Program-made: the position numbers and the translations under genes | Shown here: positions 10,843 to 39,496 of the stretch, one piece after another | Layout of the letters: each line of letters starts with the position of its first letter | Position numbering within the stretch: the first letter of the stretch is position 1 | Sequence record: SRR31156797_1248 | Reading direction: 5' to 3' (one strand) | DNA length: 39,496 nt | The notes under the pieces: generated by a model | What the model was told of the DNA's origin: nothing | The model's input: only the letters and a program-made list of their open reading frames with translations | Database searches by the model: none

Positions 10843-10872
10843 AAAGAAGCCTGCTAAAAGGCTTCTTTTTTT
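10843..10872 (+). terminator. sodA terminator
   Basis: AGAAGCCT-GCTAAA-AGGCTTCT plus T-run. Confidence 0.85.
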
Positions 10873-10897
10873 GTGGATAGAAAGAATCGTTTTGATA

Positions 10898-10926
10898 TTG
10901 CTAACGCTTACATAATCCGCTATAAT
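10898..10926 (+). promoter_or_regulatory. csp promoter (TTGCTA-17-TATAAT) overlapped by a cre-like site
   Basis: TTGCTAACGCTTACAT (10898-10913) matches WTGNNARCGNWWWCAW. Confidence 0.65.
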
Positions 10927-10974
10927 AAAGGCGACGGAATCGTCGGATTATAATTATTGGAGGCTTTACACACT

Positions 10975-11175
10975 ATGGAACATGGGAAAGTAAAATGGTT
11001 CAACAACGAAAAAGGGTTTGGTTTTATCACAGTTGACGGTGGCGATGATGTATTTGTTCACTTTTCTGCCATTCAAGGAGACGGTTTTAAGTCACTTGAA
11101 GAAGGTCAAGAAGTTGAATTTACGATCGTTGAAGGTGCCCGCGGACCTCAAGCAGCAGAAGTGACCAAAGTCTAA
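10975..11175 (+). CDS. Cold-shock domain protein (66 aa)
   Basis: [15 protein letters not shown] (RNP1), DVFVHFSAI (RNP2); ATG after GGAGG. Confidence 0.97.
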
Positions 11176-11185
11176 ATCAGAACGG

Positions 11186-11213
11186 AAAAGCTGAGTAAGC
11201 CCTCAGCTTTTTT
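11186..11213 (+). terminator. csp terminator
   Basis: AAAAGCTGAG...CTCAGCTTTTTT. Confidence 0.85.
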
Positions 11214-11284
11214 AATTTGCTATTTCTCGCCATATTTGGTATCTTCAATACATTAGTAAGACTAGGAAGCGAAGAGGGATAAGC

Positions 11285-30060: not shown

Positions 30061-30092
30061 ACTAAGTGAAAAATTGGAGAGGAGGCAGACGT

Positions 30093-30641
30093 GTGGAGGC
30101 GAAAAAATTCTGGGTTGATCGTTTTTGGCTAGTAGTGAAATATGCGTTGATCGCTTTTGCAACAGCATTCTTGATTCGGGCATTCTTGTTGATCCCAGTT
30201 CCTGTTGAAGGAAATTCGATGGAAGGAACCTTAAAACAAGGAGACATGGTGGTCATTGAGAAGATTTCGCCAATCCAACGTTTTGATGTCGTTGTTTTCC
30301 AGTTGCCGGATGGTTCGACCTATATCAAGCGGGTGATTGGCTTACCGGGTGAGTCAGTGAAATATGTCAATGATCAGCTTTACATTGATGATGAACCGGT
30401 AGATGAAGATTTTCTAGTGAAGAACCGCAGCAATGATCACGAGTCTGTCTCTTACACCAATGACTTTGATTTGGAATCTTTATTAGGTGTTGAGAAATTA
30501 GGGAAAGATAGTTACTTTGTCATTGGAGACAATCGACGTGCCTCCAAAGATAGCCGTTCCTTTGGACCAATATCAGGAGAGGCCATTTTAGGCAATGCTC
30601 GTTTTGTTTATTATCCATTGACTCATATTCGATTGATTTAG
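30093..30641 (+). CDS. lepB: Signal peptidase I
   Basis: One TM, GNSM (Ser), YIKRVIGLPG (Lys), GDNR..SKDSR; GTG 30093 after GGAGG. Confidence 0.93.
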   Translation: MEAKKFWVDRFWLVVKYALIAFATAFLIRAFLLIPVPVEGNSMEGTLKQGDMVVIEKISPIQRFDVVVFQLPDGSTYIKRVIGLPGESVKYVNDQLYIDDEPVDEDFLVKNRSNDHESVSYTNDFDLESLLGVEKLGKDSYFVIGDNRRASKDSRSFGPISGEAILGNARFVYYPLTHIRLI

Positions 30642-30673
30642 TCTGTGTAAAATCAATAAATAATTAAATAATG

Positions 30674-30716
30674 AATCCCCCCTTGGAATCATCCGTTGAT
30701 TCCAAGGGGGGATTTT
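30674..30716. terminator. Perfect 18-bp hairpin between convergent lepB and the regulator
   Basis: AATCCCCCCTTGGAATCA-TCCGT-TGATTCCAAGGGGGGATT, then TT. Confidence 0.85.
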
Positions 30717-30774
30717 GTCTAGCTTTTTATTCTTTTTCCAAAGGGAAATGGTTAGCATCGAAAAAAGCGTTTGT

Positions 30775-32268
30775 TTAGTCACTAATTGCTGTTAATTTTT
30801 TTATTTTTTCATTAAAAGCATTCGATAGTTTCTGACATAAATTCGTTTCAAAATCACGATAGCGACAAAAATCAATGATCGCCGAGTTTTCTTCGGTTGT
30901 AAAAGGGGGTAAAAGCTGTGGTGAGCTCAAAATATAAAAGTCAAAAGGTTCTTCAGTTGGCAGCGTGATCCGTTCAATTTCAACGTAGGGCAACCGTTCA
31001 CATATATTAAAAACTTCCATGGAAACCAAGTAGTTAGATACATAGACAAAAGCAACTTTAAGTTTATATTTTTGTTCCTTTTCAATGTAAATGGGATAAA
31101 GCAAACAGGCTTGATAAAAAGCAAGATCGGTATAACAGGTTTTTAACCACTCATAACCTTTACGATTTGCTATTTTACGCCAAAAACTTTGAATGGTATT
31201 TGTCAAAATCGTATGTAATGGGTATTTATCCTTAATGACATTTGCTTCGAAAAAATTTGAAAGGGGGACTTTTTGCTTAAATATACAGAACTTCAGCAAC
31301 GTAAGATATGTATTCATATAAAGGAACGACTGATGGTCGAAGTCAAAATCACAGAGAAATTTTTGGCAATGTTCTTCAAACTCAGTCATCAGCTCTTTTA
31401 ATTCTAGCTTTTCGTGATTGTAACAATCCGCTACAATCGGAAGACGCACATCTTTGGCAGAAGTCAGCATCGGCCAGTAATAAAAAAGAAAGAACAAAGA
31501 ATTGATCTCAAGAATGTCTATTGCAGAATCAATGATCATAAAGAAAGCAGAGAAGAAATCAAGCTTTTCACCACTGGGGATAAATGATCGGTTCGTTAAC
31601 TGATAAAGATTTGTCTTGTGACCATCCTTTAAACGAAACAGACAAATCTTGCAATGAAGTAAGGCTTCTTTTTTGCCAATTTCATACTTGCTTTTGTATT
31701 TCGTTCCTTCATAGGTAACAAAAAGCTCTTCGATCTCTTGGTCAAAGGCCTTCACCAAACTATCCCCTAAAGAAATGTGCCAGATAAAATTAAACAATAA
31801 GATGCGAATCACCATCTCTGAACCGATAAGCGTCATGGCGGATTGATTTAAGGTTACGTTGAATTCCTTTAAATGATCCTGAAGCTTTTTAGTTTGTCGG
31901 AAACAAGTCGAACGACTGATATAGTTTCTTTGGCAAAATGCCAGCAAACTTTCATCTTGATTGGTCAAGATACTTAACAACATTTTATAAGAAATACTTT
32001 CTTGGGCTAAAAACTGCTGATATTGATTGTATTCAATCAAATTTTTAGGGAGACTAAGGGTGTTTTTATGTAATGAAAGATTTACTGGGGAGAGGTTTTG
32101 CAGGTCCTCTTGGATCGAGGAAAGTAAACTTTTCAATCTCGTTGCACTTAAATGGGTCAGATTTTTCACGAACTCTATGTTGTATTCACCCGGAGCAATT
32201 GATAGTAGTTTTCCGTAGAGTCCGATTTTGTCTAATGCTCGGGTATCTAAGAGTATTTTTTCAATCAA
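30775..32268 (-). CDS. Mga/AtxA-like HTH transcriptional regulator (EbpR-like)
   Basis: 497 aa, Mga-HTH pattern (FCQRNYISRSTCFR, LIGSEMVIR); divergent from the pilin operon. Confidence 0.8.
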   Translation of the reverse strand: MIEKILLDTRALDKIGLYGKLLSIAPGEYNIEFVKNLTHLSATRLKSLLSSIQEDLQNLSPVNLSLHKNTLSLPKNLIEYNQYQQFLAQESISYKMLLSILTNQDESLLAFCQRNYISRSTCFRQTKKLQDHLKEFNVTLNQSAMTLIGSEMVIRILLFNFIWHISLGDSLVKAFDQEIEELFVTYEGTKYKSKYEIGKKEALLHCKICLFRLKDGHKTNLYQLTNRSFIPSGEKLDFFSAFFMIIDSAIDILEINSLFFLFYYWPMLTSAKDVRLPIVADCYNHEKLELKELMTEFEEHCQKFLCDFDFDHQSFLYMNTYLTLLKFCIFKQKVPLSNFFEANVIKDKYPLHTILTNTIQSFWRKIANRKGYEWLKTCYTDLAFYQACLLYPIYIEKEQKYKLKVAFVYVSNYLVSMEVFNICERLPYVEIERITLPTEEPFDFYILSSPQLLPPFTTEENSAIIDFCRYRDFETNLCQKLSNAFNEKIKKLTAISD

Positions 32269-32322
32269 ATGATCACCTTCTTATTTTATTAATAACTTAT
32301 TTATATTACTGTGTAAAGACAC

Positions 32323-32383
32323 GTCTCAAAACTTTTGCTTTTTTTTAGAAAAACTGAGACAAATTTTTGCCAGAGCTGTCTCA
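32323..32383. promoter_or_regulatory. Three TGAGAC/GTCTCA half-sites in the divergent promoter region
   Basis: GTCTCA 32323-32328, TGAGACA 32355-32361, TGTCTCA 32377-32383. Confidence 0.45.
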
Positions 32384-32611
32384 TAAAGAACAAAAATAGA
32401 AATCGCATGTGAAAAACGCTAGTTTTTTTTAGTTATTAAATAACGTTGGTTAATTGGTTCCGCTTTGAAATAAAAAAACTTTTTTATTTATGAATAACTA
32501 CAGATGCGTAAATTTTTCCTGTTTTTCAGAAAATAAAAAAAAGAGGTGTCTTTCGCTTCTTTCTTGTATCATCAGCTTGTAATTTTTGATTCTTTGAAAG
32601 GAGGTCTTTTT

Positions 32612-35600
32612 ATGTTTTTGACAAAGAGACACCACTGGTTCTCTTTCATTTTCTGTATGTTAGGGGGGATATTATTTTTCATTTATTCGAGTTTGCAAAC
32701 AAATGGGATAGCAAGTGCACAAGAAGAAAATACGATCGCTATTACCGAAACGGAGCAGATCAAGTTGACAGGTCAACGGGAGGGCAATCAATTTACTTTA
32801 CGATATCAGCTATCACAAAAAAACAAACAGCAACGCATCTGGCTGCAATTATATGCACTTGATGAAACAAAAGAACAACCGCTAACGAAAACGAACAACA
32901 AAGAGGTGGTTTTTATTGAGGATGAATCCGCGCAGTCTTGGCTAACAACACAAGACTTCTTGAAAACACCCTGTGAACAAGAAGTAACGTTTCAACTACC
33001 TAATGAAACAAAAAAACTGAAGTTGGCGATTCAGATTGAAGAATATGATCACGAAAATCAAGAATCGCACAAATTGGCGTCTTTGGATGAATTGATAGTT
33101 GACATTCCGCTTGCGACAGAATCTGCTTCCTCAGATAGGGTGGAAGTCAGCTCAACTGATTCACAAGCTGCAGAAACCGGCACGGAGTCAACTTCGGAAC
33201 AAGTGTCGAATGAAGACTCAAAAGGTGTTTCGAATGAAGAAACGCAGGAAGAGACAAAGGAAACAGGAACAACGACAAGTTCTTCTGAAGACGAAACACT
33301 CATTGAACCGTTTAAACAAGAACGTCTTTATCAAAAAACGACCGTTTCACAGGCTTTTGCTTCGATTGAACCAGATTATACGACAGACCAAAGCGGGACG
33401 TATCCTTCGGCTAATTGGACAATTGATGAAAAGAGCAATGTCTTAAATCATCAGGGGAACAAAGATGCAGGCGAAACCTGGGATGGCGTAACTACATGGA
33501 ATGGTGATCCAGAAAATTTGACCAACTCGTATATTGAGTATGGTGGTGTGGGAGATGAAGCGGATTTTGCTTTACGGAAATTTGCAAAAGAGACGAATAC
33601 TCCAGGACTGTTTGATGTCTACCTAAATGTACGAGGGAATGTTCAACGCCAAATTGATCCGATCGATGTTGTGTTGGTAGTGGATTGGTCAGGGAGTATG
33701 AATGAGATGGGACGCATCACTGAGGTAAAAAAAGGTGTGGATCGCTTTTTGAATCAAATTGAAGGAAGCGGCATTCAAGACAGTGTCTACATGGGCTATG
33801 TCGGTTATTCCAGTGATGGTAACAATTACCAAAACAAAACCTGCCAGTTAGGAAAATTTTCTGAAGTCAAAGAGACGATCCGAACGATGACGCCAGAAAC
33901 AGCAGCTGGGGGGACCTTTACCCAAAGAGGGCTTCGCCAAGCTGGGGATATGCTATCAACGCAAAATGGACATAAGAAAGTCATCGTTTTGCTAACAGAT
34001 GGCGTGCCGACCTACAGTTATCATGTGTCCAAAGTGCATACACAAGCAGATGGTAGTTATTATGGAACCGCCTTTTCTCTTTCTCAAGACCAGCCGATGA
34101 ATACTTCACATCTCTACAACGGGTATTTTGCATCTGATCAGTACGGTAACTCTAAATGGATCAACAATACGTTTGTCGCCACGATCGGTGAGGCGATGGC
34201 GTTAAAAGAGCGCGGGATTGAGATTCACGGATTGGGGATTCAACTGCAAGGGGATCAAACAGCTGGGTATACAAAGGCCGATGTTGAGAACAAAATGAGA
34301 CAGATGGTTTCTGCTGATGAAGAGGGGCATCTTTATTATGAGTCAGCCAATGAAGCAGCGGATATTGCCGACTATCTCGAGAAAAAAGCCCTTCATATTT
34401 CGGCGACAGTCACTGATGGAGAGATTACTGACCCCATTTCGCAGCCATTTTTATACGAAGAAAATAGCTTGTCCATCAAAAGTGTCGGTTCTGCTGCTCT
34501 AACGGTGCAGCCTGAGGTCACGATATCTGACAATACACTCAATGCTTCTGGTCTTTATTTAGGCGAAGGACAGGAACTGCAAATTCATTATCAAGTGCGG
34601 ATTCAAACGGAAGCAGCGGATTTTAAACCAGATACTTGGTATCAAATGAATGGAGAAACGGTGTTTTATCCGAATCATCAGTCCGATCAAAAGGCATTGT
34701 TTGGTGTGCCTTCTGCCAAAGCACCTGGGAAAGAGTTGACGATCAAAAAAGTCTGGGAGGAATACGATGGCGATACGTCAAGTCGCCCAGAATCTGTCTA
34801 TTTTGAAATAAGCAGAAGCCCAGTTACTAGCAAGGAGAGCTGGCAAACAGGATATCTCAAACTTACTGAGACCGATGCACAAGATCAGACAAGTTGGGAA
34901 CGAAGCAAGGTTTCCGCGGTTTCTGAAAAGGATGGAACGGATTACGAAGAAACCCGGCTACTGCCGCTTTATAACAATCAAGGAGAAACGTTTAATTATC
35001 AAGTCACAAATGAACTGGCAGTATCAGGCTACGAATCGACAAGAGTGGACGTTTCTACATGGAAAAACACAAAGACATTTGTGCCCCTCGCATTAAATCT
35101 GATCAAAAAATCCGCTGTAGGAGAGGTGAAGCTGACAGGTGCTGTTTTTGAATTGACGGGCGCTGGAAAGACAGTAACCCTTGTGGATCAAGGGGATGGA
35201 ACGTACGGGATGCCAGCAGATACTACGTTGCAAAAAAGTCAGACGTATCGTTTAAAGGAAGTCACTGCACCGGCGGGACATCATTTGGCTAAGCAAACAG
35301 AGTGGCTGATCCATATTGATGAGCAAGGGCATGCGACGATTGATGGACAACCTGTCACACTGGTCGAGCATACGATTATCCTGGAGATTACCAATCCGTT
35401 TACAGAAATTCCAGTCGCTATTCGAAAATATTCGTTGCAAAATGAGCAGCAAGTATTGTTAGCAGGCGCTGTCTTTTCTCTTCAACAAAAAACAGCAGGA
35501 GGGGATTATCAAGAAATCGCCTCAGAAACGTCGGATGATGTTGGGATGGCTGAATTTACGATCCTTGAGCCTGGCGCTTATCGTATCTCAGAAACAGCCG

Positions 35601-36187
35601 GTCCGCTCGGATATGATACGGTTGCCGGTGACTATGAATTTGTCGTTGGTACAGACGGAAAAATCCAGTATCAAGGGGAAAATGTCGACGGGGATGCCAA
35701 CTGTTGGACCCTTACCCATGGCAATCAGTTAAAACCTTTTGATTTGGTGGTCAATAAACAGGATGAACTGGGACAAGCACTTGAGGGGGCAAAATTCCGG
35801 CTAAGTGGAAACGGACGGACTGTCGAACTGCCTGAAAACGGAGAAGCACTAGCGGTATTTCACTTCCAAGATCTCACACCCGGCAGCTATACCTTGGAAG
35901 AAACTGGTACACCCGCAGGCTATGCAGGTTTAACAGCACCTGTCCAAATCAAGATTGAAGAGGATGGTCAGGTCTTTATCGATGAAGAACGACTACCGAA
36001 TCTTCTTGTTTCTGGAGAAAAGAACAATCAAATAGAATTGATCGTAACCAATCAAGTGAAAGTGTCTCTTCCTGAAACCGGAGGGAATTGGCATGGATGG
36101 ATGGTCATTCTTTCAGCAAGTCTGCTAGTCCTTTTAGCTGGTAGCTATTTGCACGTTAAGCGCAAAGATAAGCCTTCATTAAAGTAA
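32612..36187 (+). CDS. ebpA: Pilus tip adhesin with vWA domain (EbpA-like)
   Basis: Signal peptide, MIDAS DWSGS...GGTFT...LLTDG, CnaB/SpaA-like repeats, LPETG + TM + basic tail; ATG after AAGGAGG. Confidence 0.88.
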   Translation: MFLTKRHHWFSFIFCMLGGILFFIYSSLQTNGIASAQEENTIAITETEQIKLTGQREGNQFTLRYQLSQKNKQQRIWLQLYALDETKEQPLTKTNNKEVVFIEDESAQSWLTTQDFLKTPCEQEVTFQLPNETKKLKLAIQIEEYDHENQESHKLASLDELIVDIPLATESASSDRVEVSSTDSQAAETGTESTSEQVSNEDSKGVSNEETQEETKETGTTTSSSEDETLIEPFKQERLYQKTTVSQAFASIEPDYTTDQSGTYPSANWTIDEKSNVLNHQGNKDAGETWDGVTTWNGDPENLTNSYIEYGGVGDEADFALRKFAKETNTPGLFDVYLNVRGNVQRQIDPIDVVLVVDWSGSMNEMGRITEVKKGVDRFLNQIEGSGIQDSVYMGYVGYSSDGNNYQNKTCQLGKFSEVKETIRTMTPETAAGGTFTQRGLRQAGDMLSTQNGHKKVIVLLTDGVPTYSYHVSKVHTQADGSYYGTAFSLSQDQPMNTSHLYNGYFASDQYGNSKWINNTFVATIGEAMALKERGIEIHGLGIQLQGDQTAGYTKADVENKMRQMVSADEEGHLYYESANEAADIADYLEKKALHISATVTDGEITDPISQPFLYEENSLSIKSVGSAALTVQPEVTISDNTLNASGLYLGEGQELQIHYQVRIQTEAADFKPDTWYQMNGETVFYPNHQSDQKALFGVPSAKAPGKELTIKKVWEEYDGDTSSRPESVYFEISRSPVTSKESWQTGYLKLTETDAQDQTSWERSKVSAVSEKDGTDYEETRLLPLYNNQGETFNYQVTNELAVSGYESTRVDVSTWKNTKTFVPLALNLIKKSAVGEVKLTGAVFELTGAGKTVTLVDQGDGTYGMPADTTLQKSQTYRLKEVTAPAGHHLAKQTEWLIHIDEQGHATIDGQPVTLVEHTIILEITNPFTEIPVAIRKYSLQNEQQVLLAGAVFSLQQKTAGGDYQEIASETSDDVGMAEFTILEPGAYRISETAGPLGYDTVAGDYEFVVGTDGKIQYQGENVDGDANCWTLTHGNQLKPFDLVVNKQDELGQALEGAKFRLSGNGRTVELPENGEALAVFHFQDLTPGSYTLEETGTPAGYAGLTAPVQIKIEEDGQVFIDEERLPNLLVSGEKNNQIELIVTNQVKVSLPETGGNWHGWMVILSASLLVLLAGSYLHVKRKDKPSLK

Positions 36188-36241
36188 TTTTTCCATTAGC
36201 GAATGAAAAACGAAAAAAAATTTAGAAGAGAGGAAAGAACA

Positions 36242-38113
36242 ATGAAAAAGATTTTTAATCATACGAAAATGGTTTGTCTCCTATTTTTACTTTTGCCATT
36301 TGTCTTTTTTGGAACAAAAAATCAGCAAGTGTCTGCAGAGAGCAATTTGGCACAGATCCATCTCCATAAAAAGAAAATGGTCAATCTGCCAGGTTCATTG
36401 ATTCAAAATAGTGGGACTGAGATGGAAGAGTTTGATCAATACCAAGGCTTAGCCGATGTCACTTTTTCTGTCTATGATGTGACAGCAGCATTTTATGAAA
36501 AACGATCTGCAGGGGCATCCGTTGAAGAAGCCAAGCGTCAAGTTCAAACCTTGACGTCTGGTTCCCCTATAGCTAGCGGGAAAACAGATGCAGCCGGTGA
36601 TTTGGTTTTTGAATTGCCGAAAAAACAAGCCGATCGGGATGCAGTTTACACCATTGTAGAAGCCCCTAAAGACGGCGTTACAACTGCTGAGAATATGGTG
36701 ATCGCCTTTCCCGTATATGAAATGATCCAACAAGCTGATGGCTCATATGTTTATGGAGAAGAAGAGCTAGACACGATCCATCTTTATCCGAAGAATATCG
36801 TCACAAATGAAGGAACGCTCCTTGTGAATAAGCGAGGAACGGGGGAAAACGAACCACTGAATGATGCGGAATTTGTTGTTTCAAAGCAAGAAGGACGCGA
36901 AAATACCAAGAAATACATTTTAAGTGCAGCCGATGGACTTTATACATGGACAACTGACAAACAGGCAGCGTACCGTTTTTTGACAGGCAAACAATATGCT
37001 GCTGGAGACGCTGGTATCGATGTGAGTGAGAACCAAAAAGGACAGCTAAAGATTGCGCAACTAGAAACAGGCGCCTATCAATTAGAGGAAACGAAAGCCC
37101 CAAGTCAAGCCGCCTTAATCGAGGAAGAAAGAATCAAGGATTTCTCGATTGATTCAGGAAGTAACGTTACTGTTGAGCTAACAATCAAGAATGACACAAC
37201 AAATGTTACAAAAACAACACCACAATTAGACGGCAAAGACGTGGAGATCGGCGAAAGAATCCAATATCACCTAACGGTCAATATCCCATCAGGTATTCAA
37301 GATAAAGTAGGATCAGAAAACAAATACAAACATTTTCAATTGATCGATGCCCATGATCCAGCATTAACTTTTGAAAATACAGCTGAAGGAGAAACGGGCT
37401 ATGCATTGTATGATGGAGAGCAGAAAATCGATGCGACGAATTACCAAGTAACGGAAAAAGAGCATGGCTTTACGGTAACTATCAATCCAGAATTCGTGCC
37501 GCAATTAACGCCGGGAAATCAATTGCGCTTTGTGTATTATATGTATTTAAATGAACAAGCTATGCCTATCAATGGCTTTACGAATAAAGCAAATGTAGAA
37601 ACGGATTTCATGACGGATCAAACGCCTCCAAGCGTGGAAGTTTTGACAGGGGGCAAACGGTTCTTAAAAGTCGATGGGGCTGTGACCGCTACCGAAGCAT
37701 TGGCAGATGCAGTTTTTGTTGTACGGGATCAAGACCGTGATGATGCCAACTACCTGAAAATCGAAGAAGGAACCAAACAGGTATCTTGGGTGCAAACAGC
37801 GGATGAAGCGACGAAATTTACCACAGGGACAGATGGATTAGTTGATATCATCGGGTTAAAATTTGGCACCTACTATTTGGAAGAAGTAAAAGCACCAAAA
37901 AATTATGTACTGCTAACAAATCGCATCGCTTTTGAAGTACATGAAACGTCTTATGGAACGAAAGAGCAATTGGGAGATCCAGAAAAAGTCCCTAACCGCC
38001 GCAAAGGAACCTTACCGGCAACTGGTGGTGCCGGCACGTATTTAATGGGCGCCATCGGAGTGGTGATCGTTGGTTTAGCTGGGTGTTATTTTGTTAAACG
38101 GAAAAAAGGGTAA
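36242..38113 (+). CDS. ebpC: Major (shaft) pilin, EbpC-like
   Basis: Signal peptide, HLYPKN pilin motif, E-box YYLEEVKAPKNY, LPATG + TM + KRKK. Confidence 0.88.
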   Translation: MKKIFNHTKMVCLLFLLLPFVFFGTKNQQVSAESNLAQIHLHKKKMVNLPGSLIQNSGTEMEEFDQYQGLADVTFSVYDVTAAFYEKRSAGASVEEAKRQVQTLTSGSPIASGKTDAAGDLVFELPKKQADRDAVYTIVEAPKDGVTTAENMVIAFPVYEMIQQADGSYVYGEEELDTIHLYPKNIVTNEGTLLVNKRGTGENEPLNDAEFVVSKQEGRENTKKYILSAADGLYTWTTDKQAAYRFLTGKQYAAGDAGIDVSENQKGQLKIAQLETGAYQLEETKAPSQAALIEEERIKDFSIDSGSNVTVELTIKNDTTNVTKTTPQLDGKDVEIGERIQYHLTVNIPSGIQDKVGSENKYKHFQLIDAHDPALTFENTAEGETGYALYDGEQKIDATNYQVTEKEHGFTVTINPEFVPQLTPGNQLRFVYYMYLNEQAMPINGFTNKANVETDFMTDQTPPSVEVLTGGKRFLKVDGAVTATEALADAVFVVRDQDRDDANYLKIEEGTKQVSWVQTADEATKFTTGTDGLVDIIGLKFGTYYLEEVKAPKNYVLLTNRIAFEVHETSYGTKEQLGDPEKVPNRRKGTLPATGGAGTYLMGAIGVVIVGLAGCYFVKRKKG

Positions 38114-38135
38114 GTAAATGAGATGAAAATGCACG

Positions 38136-39041
38136 ATGACAATCAAAAGGAAAAGAAATGGCACGAAAGTACCTACTCAAAAAGTGACTTTGTTGGATGT
38201 TCTAATGGGTATTCTGCTGCTGCTAGGTGTTCTGATCATCAGTTATCCTTTTGTAAGTAATCAGCTCAACACCTTTTTGGATCAACAGTTGATCAGCTAC
38301 TACCAAAGCCAAGCTAAAAAAATGAGTGAAATAGAAAAACAACAAAAAAGGAACCAGTTGGAACGAGTAAATCAAGAGCTGGCACAGCATCCCAGCAATC
38401 CTGGAATCAAAGAAACGCAAGATTTATCAGAAACAAGGGACTCAGAATCAGGCGATACACCTGATTACTATGAACGACATACGATCGGCGTTTTAAAGAT
38501 CCCCGTGATTGGTGTCGCTCTCCCGATTTTTGATCAAACCACCGATACGTTGTTAAAAAGAGGAGCAACATTATTGGAGGGCGCTTCGTATCCAATAGGT
38601 GGTGAAGATACCCATGCAGTTCTGTGCGGACACCGTGGGTTAACGAGTGCAACCCTCTTTACGGATCTGCCTAAGCTGCAGATCGGCGATGAGTTTTATA
38701 TCGAAACGTTTGATGATACGTTGGCGTATCAAATAGATCAGATTAAAACGGTCGCCCCTGATGATACCGAAGCACTAAAAATTGTCAAAGGCAGTGATTA
38801 TGTCACCTTACTAACCTGCACACCCTATATGGTCAATAGCCATCGTTTATTGGTTCGCGGCAAAAGGGTTTCTTACAATGAAGAAAATGAAACAAGTGCC
38901 GCAAAAAAAGCAAACCAGCAGGATTTGTGGGTGCTGCTAGTTGTAAGCACCATACTATTACTACTCCTGCTGGTGATTAGCAGAATCAAAAGAAAAAAAC
39001 AGCATGATTTGATCACTCCCAGTGATAAGAAGAAAAGATAG
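38136..39041 (+). CDS. srtC: Class C (pilin-specific) sortase
   Basis: N- and C-terminal TM helices, GHRG, TLLTCTPY, HRLLVRG. Confidence 0.93.
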   Translation: MTIKRKRNGTKVPTQKVTLLDVLMGILLLLGVLIISYPFVSNQLNTFLDQQLISYYQSQAKKMSEIEKQQKRNQLERVNQELAQHPSNPGIKETQDLSETRDSESGDTPDYYERHTIGVLKIPVIGVALPIFDQTTDTLLKRGATLLEGASYPIGGEDTHAVLCGHRGLTSATLFTDLPKLQIGDEFYIETFDDTLAYQIDQIKTVAPDDTEALKIVKGSDYVTLLTCTPYMVNSHRLLVRGKRVSYNEENETSAAKKANQQDLWVLLVVSTILLLLLLVISRIKRKKQHDLITPSDKKKR

Positions 39042-39113
39042 CAGGTTTTCCTCTAGATCCACTAGAAAATGACTTGTTAACCTTACTCAGAACGAAACAT
39101 GTCGTGTGAAATA

Positions 39114-39122
39114 TGGTACAAT
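39114..39122 (+). promoter_or_regulatory. Extended -10 promoter element upstream of the rbgA leader
   Basis: TGgTACAAT. Confidence 0.6.
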
Positions 39123-39139
39123 AACGAAGATAAAAGGTA

Positions 39140-39429
39140 GTAAAAAGCAGTCGGTCTAATGGTAAAGGTGTCAGAAAAAAGGAAGAATGAGTGGATAGAC
39201 AAGCTTTTTCCAACCACTTCCCCAAAATTAAAAAGCGAGAAAGCGCGTATGACGCATGAGAATCGCGCTGAAAGCTTTACCTATGCACGAGGTTGGAACA
39301 AGAACATTGTCCTAAAGCAATTTTAGCAAAATGCCCAGTGTGACTAGTTTCTCTGATGGTTTTAGAGCAAATAGTCCTCGTTCTTGTCAGATATATACTG
39401 CATGGATTTAGACACTACTGTCTTTTTAC
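39140..39429 (+). ncRNA. Candidate highly structured RNA (leader of rbgA or stand-alone ncRNA); family not recognised
   Basis: End-to-end closing helix plus several nested helices (see findings); no long ORF on this strand. Confidence 0.5.
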
Positions 39430-39464
39430 CAATTCGAAGAAGTACCAAGGAGGAAAACGTTCAA

Positions 39465-39496
39465 ATGACCATTCAATGGTTTCCAGGCCATATGGC
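39465..39496 (+). CDS. rbgA: Ribosome biogenesis GTPase RbgA/YlqF (5' fragment)
   Basis: MTIQWFPGHMA is the characteristic RbgA N-terminus; SD AAGGAGG at 39447-39453. Confidence 0.92.
   Translation, partial: MTIQWFPGHM

Follow-up and report, generated by a model that had tools for sequence, protein, structure and literature searches.

The DNA considered here is a window of 39,496 nucleotides (nt) from sequence record SRR31156797_1248, the whole stretch that was analysed, at the end of which a 424-nt spacer separates a sortase gene, the last gene of a pilus islet, from rbgA (ylqF), the gene for an essential ribosome-assembly GTPase. On balance, the interval of interest inside this spacer (39140-39429) is probably the body of a long (approximately 335 nt), lineage-specific 5′ untranslated region (UTR) of rbgA-rnhB, lying on the right-hand junction DNA of the islet and for the most part evolving neutrally. 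Position numbers are those of the window and refer to the + strand unless stated. Since the window stops 32 nt into rbgA, locus L001 of the nearest genome (G001), with 100% identity over 39040-39496, served for reading the gene. An earlier note on this DNA, made from the sequence alone, had proposed an undescribed cis-regulatory leader or processed non-coding RNA linked to assembly of the 50S ribosomal subunit. The non-coding nature of the interval and its lack of an Rfam family have stood, while its ornate fold, covariation and consensus fold have not.

Position of the leader at an islet junction

A scan for RbgA in genome contigs gave 80 other Bacillota loci, none in the genus of the window, with lepB immediately upstream of rbgA in 53 of the 80 and a sortase gene in none. 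In two islet-free congeneric species the order is peptidase, lepB, a spacer of approximately 350-380 nt and rbgA, and these two lepB-rbgA spacers have nothing in common with the leader beyond the start of rbgA. Among the 30 best sortase loci of the family, rbgA lies downstream of the sortase gene in just three, which are those of the three carrier genomes. Given that lepB and rbgA are adjacent elsewhere and in islet-free congeners, with sortase and rbgA adjacent only in the carriers, the pilus islet of approximately 8.4 kb has split an ancestral lepB-rbgA pair and the leader is the DNA of its right-hand junction.

The proposed course of events begins with lepB and rbgA as neighbours, probably co-transcribed, until the islet would have come between them in the ancestor of the three species. 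Transcription of lepB would now terminate at a strong hairpin, and that of rbgA would start at a conserved extended -10 promoter, with read-through from the pilus operon as a probable second source, since there is no terminator after the sortase gene. The approximately 290 nt between promoter and ribosome-binding site would have drifted about neutrally, folding like many AT-rich sequences with A/T runs, with two elements kept, namely a central hairpin of approximately 100 nt and an outer stem that encloses the insert without occluding the ribosome-binding site.

The leader is confined to few genomes. A 457-nt query finds one place in G001, and the leader is present as a single copy in each of G001, G002 and G004. 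It is full-length in three of the eight genomes of the genus, with identities of 100% (G001), 98% (G004) and 77% (G002); the other five match only the first approximately 30 nt of rbgA. These are also the only carriers among 134 genomes of the family, in which the four other matches are fragments of 20-37 nt (E 0.003-0.006). With an nhmmer profile of the leader no match turned up ahead of rbgA in 90 other loci (85 of them include rbgA and its upstream DNA), the only hit below E 0.1 covering 24 nt of the promoter and lying in an unrelated contig. The recurrence upstream of rbgA across many taxa that marks a riboswitch class was thus not seen, with 3/134 genomes and 0/90 other loci. A metagenome scan yielded five usable leaders, three in the window's clade (L016, L017 and L021) and two in the clade of G002 (L019 and L022), here called the sister clade, as well as one truncated leader and one unrelated contig. 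The comparisons below therefore rest on nine aligned sequences, which are effectively two clades and give low power for covariation.

According to the earlier note, the lack of a match to Rfam would support novelty. A search of Rfam 15 at gathering score found nothing in the leader, and with permissive filters up to E 10 there was again no match inside it, two matches in 38950-39496 falling outside the leader. The sister-clade leader gave three matches only, at chance level (E 2.7-8.7). Among the matches listed in a literature search on an rbgA or ylqF leader or riboswitch, no rbgA leader RNA was described.

Sequence evolution of the leader

Over 39140-39429 the window and G002 are identical at 181 of 290 positions (62%). 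This is comparable to the divergence at four-fold degenerate sites, which differ from G002 at 27.4% in rbgA (31/113), 25.5% in srtC, the sortase gene (26/102), and 37.0% in rnhB (30/81), and so by this comparison the leader interior is diverging at about the neutral rate. Within it three blocks are conserved relative to G002 (39209-38, 39259-39308 and 39369-98), with 4-11/20 positions identical between them, and from 39419 onward the sequence is near-identical in all nine sequences. Positions that are paired in the structure drawn in the earlier note are no better conserved than unpaired ones (80/120 vs 101/170, p 0.22). The 98% identity to G004 was considered as a sign of purifying selection and rejected, as divergence is also low across the 3′ half of srtC and the 5′ third of rbgA; the near-identity is regional, identity staying at 97-100% throughout this region.

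Predicted fold and its stability

Every complementary segment that the earlier note had listed was confirmed in position. The pairings comprise GTAAAAAG/CTTTTTAC, CAGT/ACTG, GTCTAA/TTAGAC, GGTAAAG/CTTTACC, GGAAG/CTTCC and AGCGCG/CGCGCT, together with TATGCA/TGCATG (with one G-U), ACAAGAAC/GTTCTTGT, GACTA/TAGTC, TTCCAACC/GGTTGGAA and ACGAGG/CCTCGT, and the CTAAA/TTTAG hairpin was located at 39312-16/39322-26. The minimum-energy structure predicted by RNAfold for the window matches most of the two-domain drawing made from these segments. In that structure the Shine-Dalgarno sequence is unpaired and lies outside the folded interval, bearing out the claim made for it.

Comparison with shuffled sequences, a check named with the original proposal, gave a divided answer. 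Cut exactly at the outer stem (39140-39429) the interval has a z score of -3.00, with 0/200 shuffles as stable, and a second independent shuffle set gave -2.54 (3/150); however, with flanks of 10-40 nt (39130-39470) the score is -1.50 (7/100), and with the outer stem removed (39160-39407) it is -1.40 (14/150). The G002 leader with flanks scores -0.63, and the minus strand of 39130-39470 scores -2.53 (1/100). The background from 24 arbitrary 290-nt pieces of the window had a mean z of -0.24, a standard deviation of 1.07 and a minimum of -2.24, these pieces not being cut at a helix, so that the comparison favours the finding. The statistical excess of the fold is modest and depends on where the boundaries are set.

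Perfect inverted repeats of at least 7 nt in 39130-39440 number nine, against 2.76 ± 1.67 in shuffles (5/1000 reach nine), and those of at least 8 nt number three, against 0.66 (24/1000). For G004, which is near-identical, five of the nine repeats of at least 7 nt are A5 runs matched with T5 runs. Self-complementarity is somewhat above average, with much of the signal coming from the outer stem and from homopolymer runs.

Conservation of structure

The two-domain architecture did not survive comparison with the sister clade. Of the helices that close the domains or lie inside them, GGTAAAG/CTTTACC keeps only 4/7 pairs there, GGAAG/CTTCC 2/5, TATGCA/TGCATG 4/6, CTAAA/TTTAG 3/5 and GACTA/TAGTC 3/5; GTCTAA/TTAGAC, in the outer stem, keeps 0/6. 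Better kept are ACAAGAAC/GTTCTTGT (7/8), TTCCAACC/GGTTGGAA (7/8) and ACGAGG/CCTCGT (5/6). The TTCCAACC/GGTTGGAA match across the two domains had been suggested as a pseudoknot or an alternative fold; like the outer stem, this helix is retained in both clades. Even among sequences of the window's clade a few substitutions switch the predicted fold from one architecture to another, domain A being formed in the window, G004 and L017 and the central hairpin in L016. As predicted from these sequences, the ornate architecture is confined to a single lineage.

On the nine-sequence alignment 84.0% of cells can pair in the nested structure, by construction for the window's clade. Both sides have changed in two of the 60 pairs, which 220 of 500 shuffles equal, and the expectation of covariation and conservation thus failed on a sample of two clades only. 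In 27 of the 60 pairs the only departures are unpaired cells, 11 of these 27 belonging to the outer stem, whose 5′ arm MAFFT places one column out of register in the sister clade. RNAalifold did not recover the two-domain drawing, and against column-shuffled alignments the consensus energy gave a z of -0.93 for the leader (structure conservation index, SCI, 0.30) and -1.18 for the interval of the earlier note (SCI 0.23). With two clades and low power, a fold kept across diverged lineages by compensatory changes, as in a riboswitch class, was not found. Likewise no expression platform was seen, there being 0 terminator-like sites and an unpaired Shine-Dalgarno sequence in place of a terminator or a helix sequestering the ribosome-binding site.

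The proposed link to 50S assembly is not supported: adjacency to rbgA is its sole basis, and the leader sits on islet-junction DNA in three genomes of the family and shows no sequence likeness to 23S rRNA beyond that of shuffled controls. An rRNA mimic was rejected on primary sequence, the best leader-23S match being 10 nt at 20.3 bits and the top ten of 50 shuffled leaders reaching 22.3-26.3 bits.

Promoter and read-through

The extended -10 element that the earlier note had placed approximately 340 nt before the rbgA ATG is present (Table 1), the start codon lying at 39465, 343 nt past it. The element falls in a block of 72 nt that is far better conserved than its surroundings, so that a leader of approximately 335 nt is plausible. 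Both an element of the TGnTAnAAT type and a conserved footprint upstream of rbgA, as looked for in a sigma-A extended -10 promoter, were found, and the element at 39114-39122 is inferred to be used as the rbgA promoter. A consensus scan of 38900-39496 found 0 two-hexamer promoters, extended -10 sites being outside its scoring, and the same region has 0 terminator-like sites on either strand.

Several further observations concern transcription into rbgA. In the sister clade the region corresponding to 39384-39412 holds TTGTCA, 17 nt and TATAAA, a good two-hexamer promoter approximately 55 nt before rbgA; the window's clade has a poor TTTAGA as second hexamer, and in all four sequencing runs examined the first reads TTGTTA. 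Three islet-free congeneric species (L004, L007 and L008) have a conserved block approximately 60-130 nt upstream of rbgA, with TATAAT approximately 100 nt before the gene, which is shared despite differing upstream genes and represents a different, shorter rbgA leader. A metagenome contig (L018, 500-523), AT-rich and without long open reading frames (ORFs), has 24 nt in common with the promoter (GCGTGTGAAATATGGTACAATAAC) and nothing else, and was taken as a chance match.

Just past the sortase stop, GTTTTCCTC (39045-39053) is complementary at all 9 nt to GAGGAAAAC (39450-39458), the Shine-Dalgarno region of rbgA. The chance of a match of at least 9 nt is 0.017 (51/3000 shuffles), and the complementarity is retained with one G-U in the sister clade, where the surrounding 30 nt are poorly conserved. 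As this anti-Shine-Dalgarno word lies upstream of the predicted promoter, it could act solely on read-through transcripts of the pilus operon.

The sequencing runs bear little on transcription of the leader. Of the 22 runs 18 are listed on record as RNA, all in the form of contigs, which cannot show transcript ends. The four runs examined span all 3.4 kb of the locus, with coverage of the pilus genes as even as that of rbgA, and in run X5 a 62-kb contig at depth 432 resembles genomic DNA; the runs may contain DNA and are uninformative on expression. One contig of run X10 joins L001 1696 to 1884 (window 39235 to 39423), skipping 187 nt of the leader, with 25 letters on one side and a depth of 4.6; it is unreliable and could be artefactual or derive from a different organism.

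The outer stem and the central hairpin

Two elements of the fold, the outer long-range stem (P1) and a central imperfect hairpin, weigh against a wholly neutral interior. In both clades P1 pairs an A-run and CAGT(C) with (G)ACTG and a T-run at a predicted probability of 0.66-1.0, the sister-clade form pairing AAAAAAGCAGUC with GACUG-U-CUUUUUU over 12 pairs. Its two arms have changed length together, being A5/T5 here and A6/T6 in the sister clade, and in one contig of run X5 the substitution G39147A is accompanied by an insertion of TT in the T-run. The interval bounded by P1 lies at or past the edge of the 24-segment background, and it beats its shuffles in seven of seven sequences tested, the diverged clade included (z -1.78 to -3.35).

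For the central hairpin, RNAalifold gave a z of -3.64 against column shuffles (0/200) with an SCI of 0.56. Its arms are the best conserved interior parts (the blocks at 39209-38 and 39259-39308), and its internal-loop sequences are 100% and 11/12 conserved, against approximately 50% for neighbouring sequence. The apex is 9 nt shorter in the sister clade, where a six-pair helix re-forms one step outward. Changes in the hairpin are mostly G-U compatible on the + strand, with a two-step compensatory change from C-G through U-G to U-A at 39210/39296 and a U-G at 39214. The coupled length changes of P1, the z scores of the hairpin and the stability of the interval in both clades fit selection for pairing, and the outer stem and central hairpin may, judging from these comparisons, be under selection.

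The evidence for the hairpin has its own limits. The hairpin window was picked after inspection of the data, and folded alone it scores -2.70 and -2.62 in the window's clade but only -1.63 and -0.64 in the sister clade. The covariation count for the hairpin is one pair, matched by 246 of 500 shuffles, and a covariance model built on it matches only the same three source genomes among the 134.

Alternative explanations

The kept elements make it possible, though unlikely, that the interval is a genuine young structured leader specific to this clade, with P1 and the approximately 100-nt central hairpin as its core, setting the output of rbgA-rnhB. In such a leader P1 would serve either as an RNase III-type stalk for trimming or as a clamp keeping the interior off the ribosome-binding site, and the hairpin would bind a factor. 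The predicted pairing of P1 in both clades, the joint change of its arms in two separate lineages, the seven consistent interval scores and the shape, loops and + strand-compatible changes of the hairpin all speak for this explanation. Set against them are a sample of effectively two lineages, the single covarying pair in a post hoc hairpin window, the low scores of the isolated sister-clade hairpin, the competing fold that dominates in the window, G004 and L017, scores that are ordinary once flanks are included (-1.5 in the window, -0.63 in G002), an overall divergence that is neutral, and a lack of any ligand-type conserved core or Rfam relative.

A more elaborate form of this explanation is doubtful: a newly born regulatory leader, evolved from the junction DNA in a small Enterococcus lineage once the islet had split lepB-rbgA, in which P1 would be a processing or insulating stalk that trims or clamps the interior of approximately 270 nt, the approximately 100-nt hairpin would bind a factor, and the anti-Shine-Dalgarno word at 39045-53 would silence translation of rbgA solely on read-through transcripts of the pilus operon.

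The arms of P1 could also be terminal inverted repeats, either of a miniature transposable element or of the end of the islet, that came to lie between promoter and ribosome-binding site, with decaying cargo as the rest. The arms GTAAAAAG-CAGTCG-GTCTAA and, in reverse complement, GTAAAAAGACAGTAGTGTCTAA are alike at about 18/22 positions, conservation is much lower in the interior than in the promoter and ribosome-binding site that flank it, the locus sits at an islet junction, and the excess of inverted repeats belongs to the DNA, the minus strand folding at least as well. Copy number argues the other way. The 457-nt BLAST query finds 1 place in G001, a search for the 20-nt arm allowing up to 3 mismatches finds nothing outside the locus in G001 and G004 and one place elsewhere, with 3 mismatches, in G002 (a backwards-pattern control gives 1 per genome), and there are no copies in the 131 other genomes of the family. 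No target-site duplication was seen beside the arms, although an old element could have lost one, and there is no transposase remnant, the sole ORF being without a Pfam family or longer relatives. This origin is accordingly improbable, and a pseudogene relic was rejected on the same 55-amino-acid ORF, which has neither a Pfam family nor longer relatives.

Still less probable is that the functional strand is the minus strand, as an antisense RNA to the rbgA leader, or that the DNA itself is functional. The minus strand of 39130-39470 does fold better than the plus strand relative to shuffles (-2.53, with 1/100, vs -1.50), but no promoter-like or terminator-like site was found on either strand, the G-U pairs that substitutions give on the plus strand in the kept helices would become A-C mismatches if the minus strand were the one to fold, and the isolated central hairpin on the minus strand of G002 scores only -0.56.

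That the ATG-started 55-codon ORF inside the leader encodes a small protein or leader peptide is hardly credible, as a 1-nt deletion frameshifts it in L016 and L021, the ATG is ATT and in-frame stops are present in all three sister-clade sequences (G002, L019 and L022), its best Pfam match (E 0.074) is under the cut-off, and 0/5 longer candidates scored. Because the ORF is frameshifted in L016 and L021 and has no ATG in the sister clade, the sequences support a non-coding stretch.

Comparison with known systems

A mostly neutral islet-junction UTR has its closest parallel in ordinary long 5′ leaders left when an islet splits an operon, with which the interval shares a promoter footprint, a long non-coding stretch, an unpaired ribosome-binding site, restriction to the islet-carrying lineage and interior divergence at the neutral rate. 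It differs in that P1 and the hairpin are kept and the P1-bounded interval beats shuffles in both clades, which a neutral spacer need not do.

The autoregulatory leaders of ribosomal-protein and translation-factor operons in Bacillota, such as those of L19, L20 and L10, are shared between orders and represented by Rfam models, and as a rule they imitate an rRNA site. The likeness to these lies in a structured 5′ leader before a ribosome-related gene; unlike them, the present leader has no Rfam match and no 23S likeness and is found in 3/134 family genomes and 0/90 other rbgA loci. RNase III processing stalks are known as the stems that flank 16S and 23S rRNA and from some mRNA leaders. Here segments approximately 270 nt apart are similarly predicted to pair as an interrupted helix of 12-18 bp enclosing the interior, the 3′ arm of P1 stopping approximately 20 nt before the ribosome-binding site; in contrast to such stalks P1 has only 12 pairs in the sister clade.

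With the large RNAs OLE, GOLLD, ROOL and raiA the interval shares a size class of approximately 300 nt, many predicted helices and a Bacillota genome. None of these matches even at E 10, however, and they are widespread and rich in covariation, whereas the leader is found in three species with no significant covariation. The pneumococcal RUP and BOX elements are miniature inverted-repeat elements of Lactobacillales. Like them the interval is a few hundred bp long, non-coding and intergenic with imperfect inverted repeats at its ends; unlike them it is single copy, with no relatives of its arms or body elsewhere.

Features of the locus

The coordinates of the leader elements and neighbouring genes are collected in Table 1. 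The identity of rbgA was established from L001 (YlqF/RbgA, TIGR03596, E 5.9e-109), and rnhB comes next. Upstream the order is an S41 peptidase gene and then lepB, followed by the islet genes for a Mga-domain regulator, a VWA tip pilin, a major pilin and sortase C. The islet, approximately 8.4 kb in length, occupies window 30642-39100 between lepB and rbgA. The hairpin between lepB and the convergent Mga-like regulator gene is labelled by the scan as a terminator on the minus strand and is probably bidirectional. The sole Rfam match in the window at gathering score is a cspA thermoregulator at 10843-11215 on the + strand, with 87.8 bits vs a gathering score of 78 (E 5.4e-21).

Table 1. Features of the rbgA leader and the adjoining islet, in window coordinates.
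Feature	Position	Strand	Evidence or remark
P1 5′ arm (outer long-range stem)	39140..39159	+	pair probability 0.94-0.99 in the window
P1 3′ arm	39408..39429	+	as 5′ arm; innermost GTCTAA/TTAGAC lost in the sister clade
Central imperfect hairpin: CTT + TTCCAACC / GGTTGGAA + AAG, AAAGC/GCTTT, AGCGCG/CGCGCT; apex variable	39204..39302	+	same predicted shape in both clades for the piece folded alone
Conserved promoter block (inferred), about -60 to +10 of a start near 39129	39069..39140	+	18-20/20 identical to the sister clade in sliding windows vs 6-11/20 just outside
Extended -10 element TGGTACAAT, with TA before it giving TATGGTACAAT	39114..39122	+	invariant in 9/9 aligned sequences
55-codon ORF, judged not a gene	39159..39326	+	broken in relatives; no Pfam family above cut-off
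Shine-Dalgarno GGAGG (39449-53) and rbgA start codon ATG (39465-67)	39449..39467	+	sequence; outside the folded interval
Class C-type sortase gene (srtC), last gene of the pilus islet	38136..39041	+	Pfam Sortase PF04203, E 4.9e-25; ORF list
Major pilin gene	36203..38113		
VWA tip pilin gene	32546..36187		
Mga-domain regulator gene	30775..32268	-	
GC-rich hairpin between lepB and the regulator gene	30674..30714		18 bp, 9 G-C pairs
lepB	30066..30641		

Significance

If the interval is the ordinary, mostly neutral UTR favoured here, the value of the analysis is corrective, an ornate fold in a single sequence not being the same as a conserved RNA, and the locus need not be chased as a new riboswitch-like class. 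Were it instead a newly born regulatory leader, an essential ribosome-assembly GTPase would have been uncoupled from pilus regulation. The context is of interest in its own right, in that the essential rbgA, normally co-transcribed with lepB, would have been re-wired after the islet insertion with a new promoter and a long leader. With the two helices that were retained one could also test, on a small scale, whether selection comes to act on structure in non-coding DNA of such recent origin.

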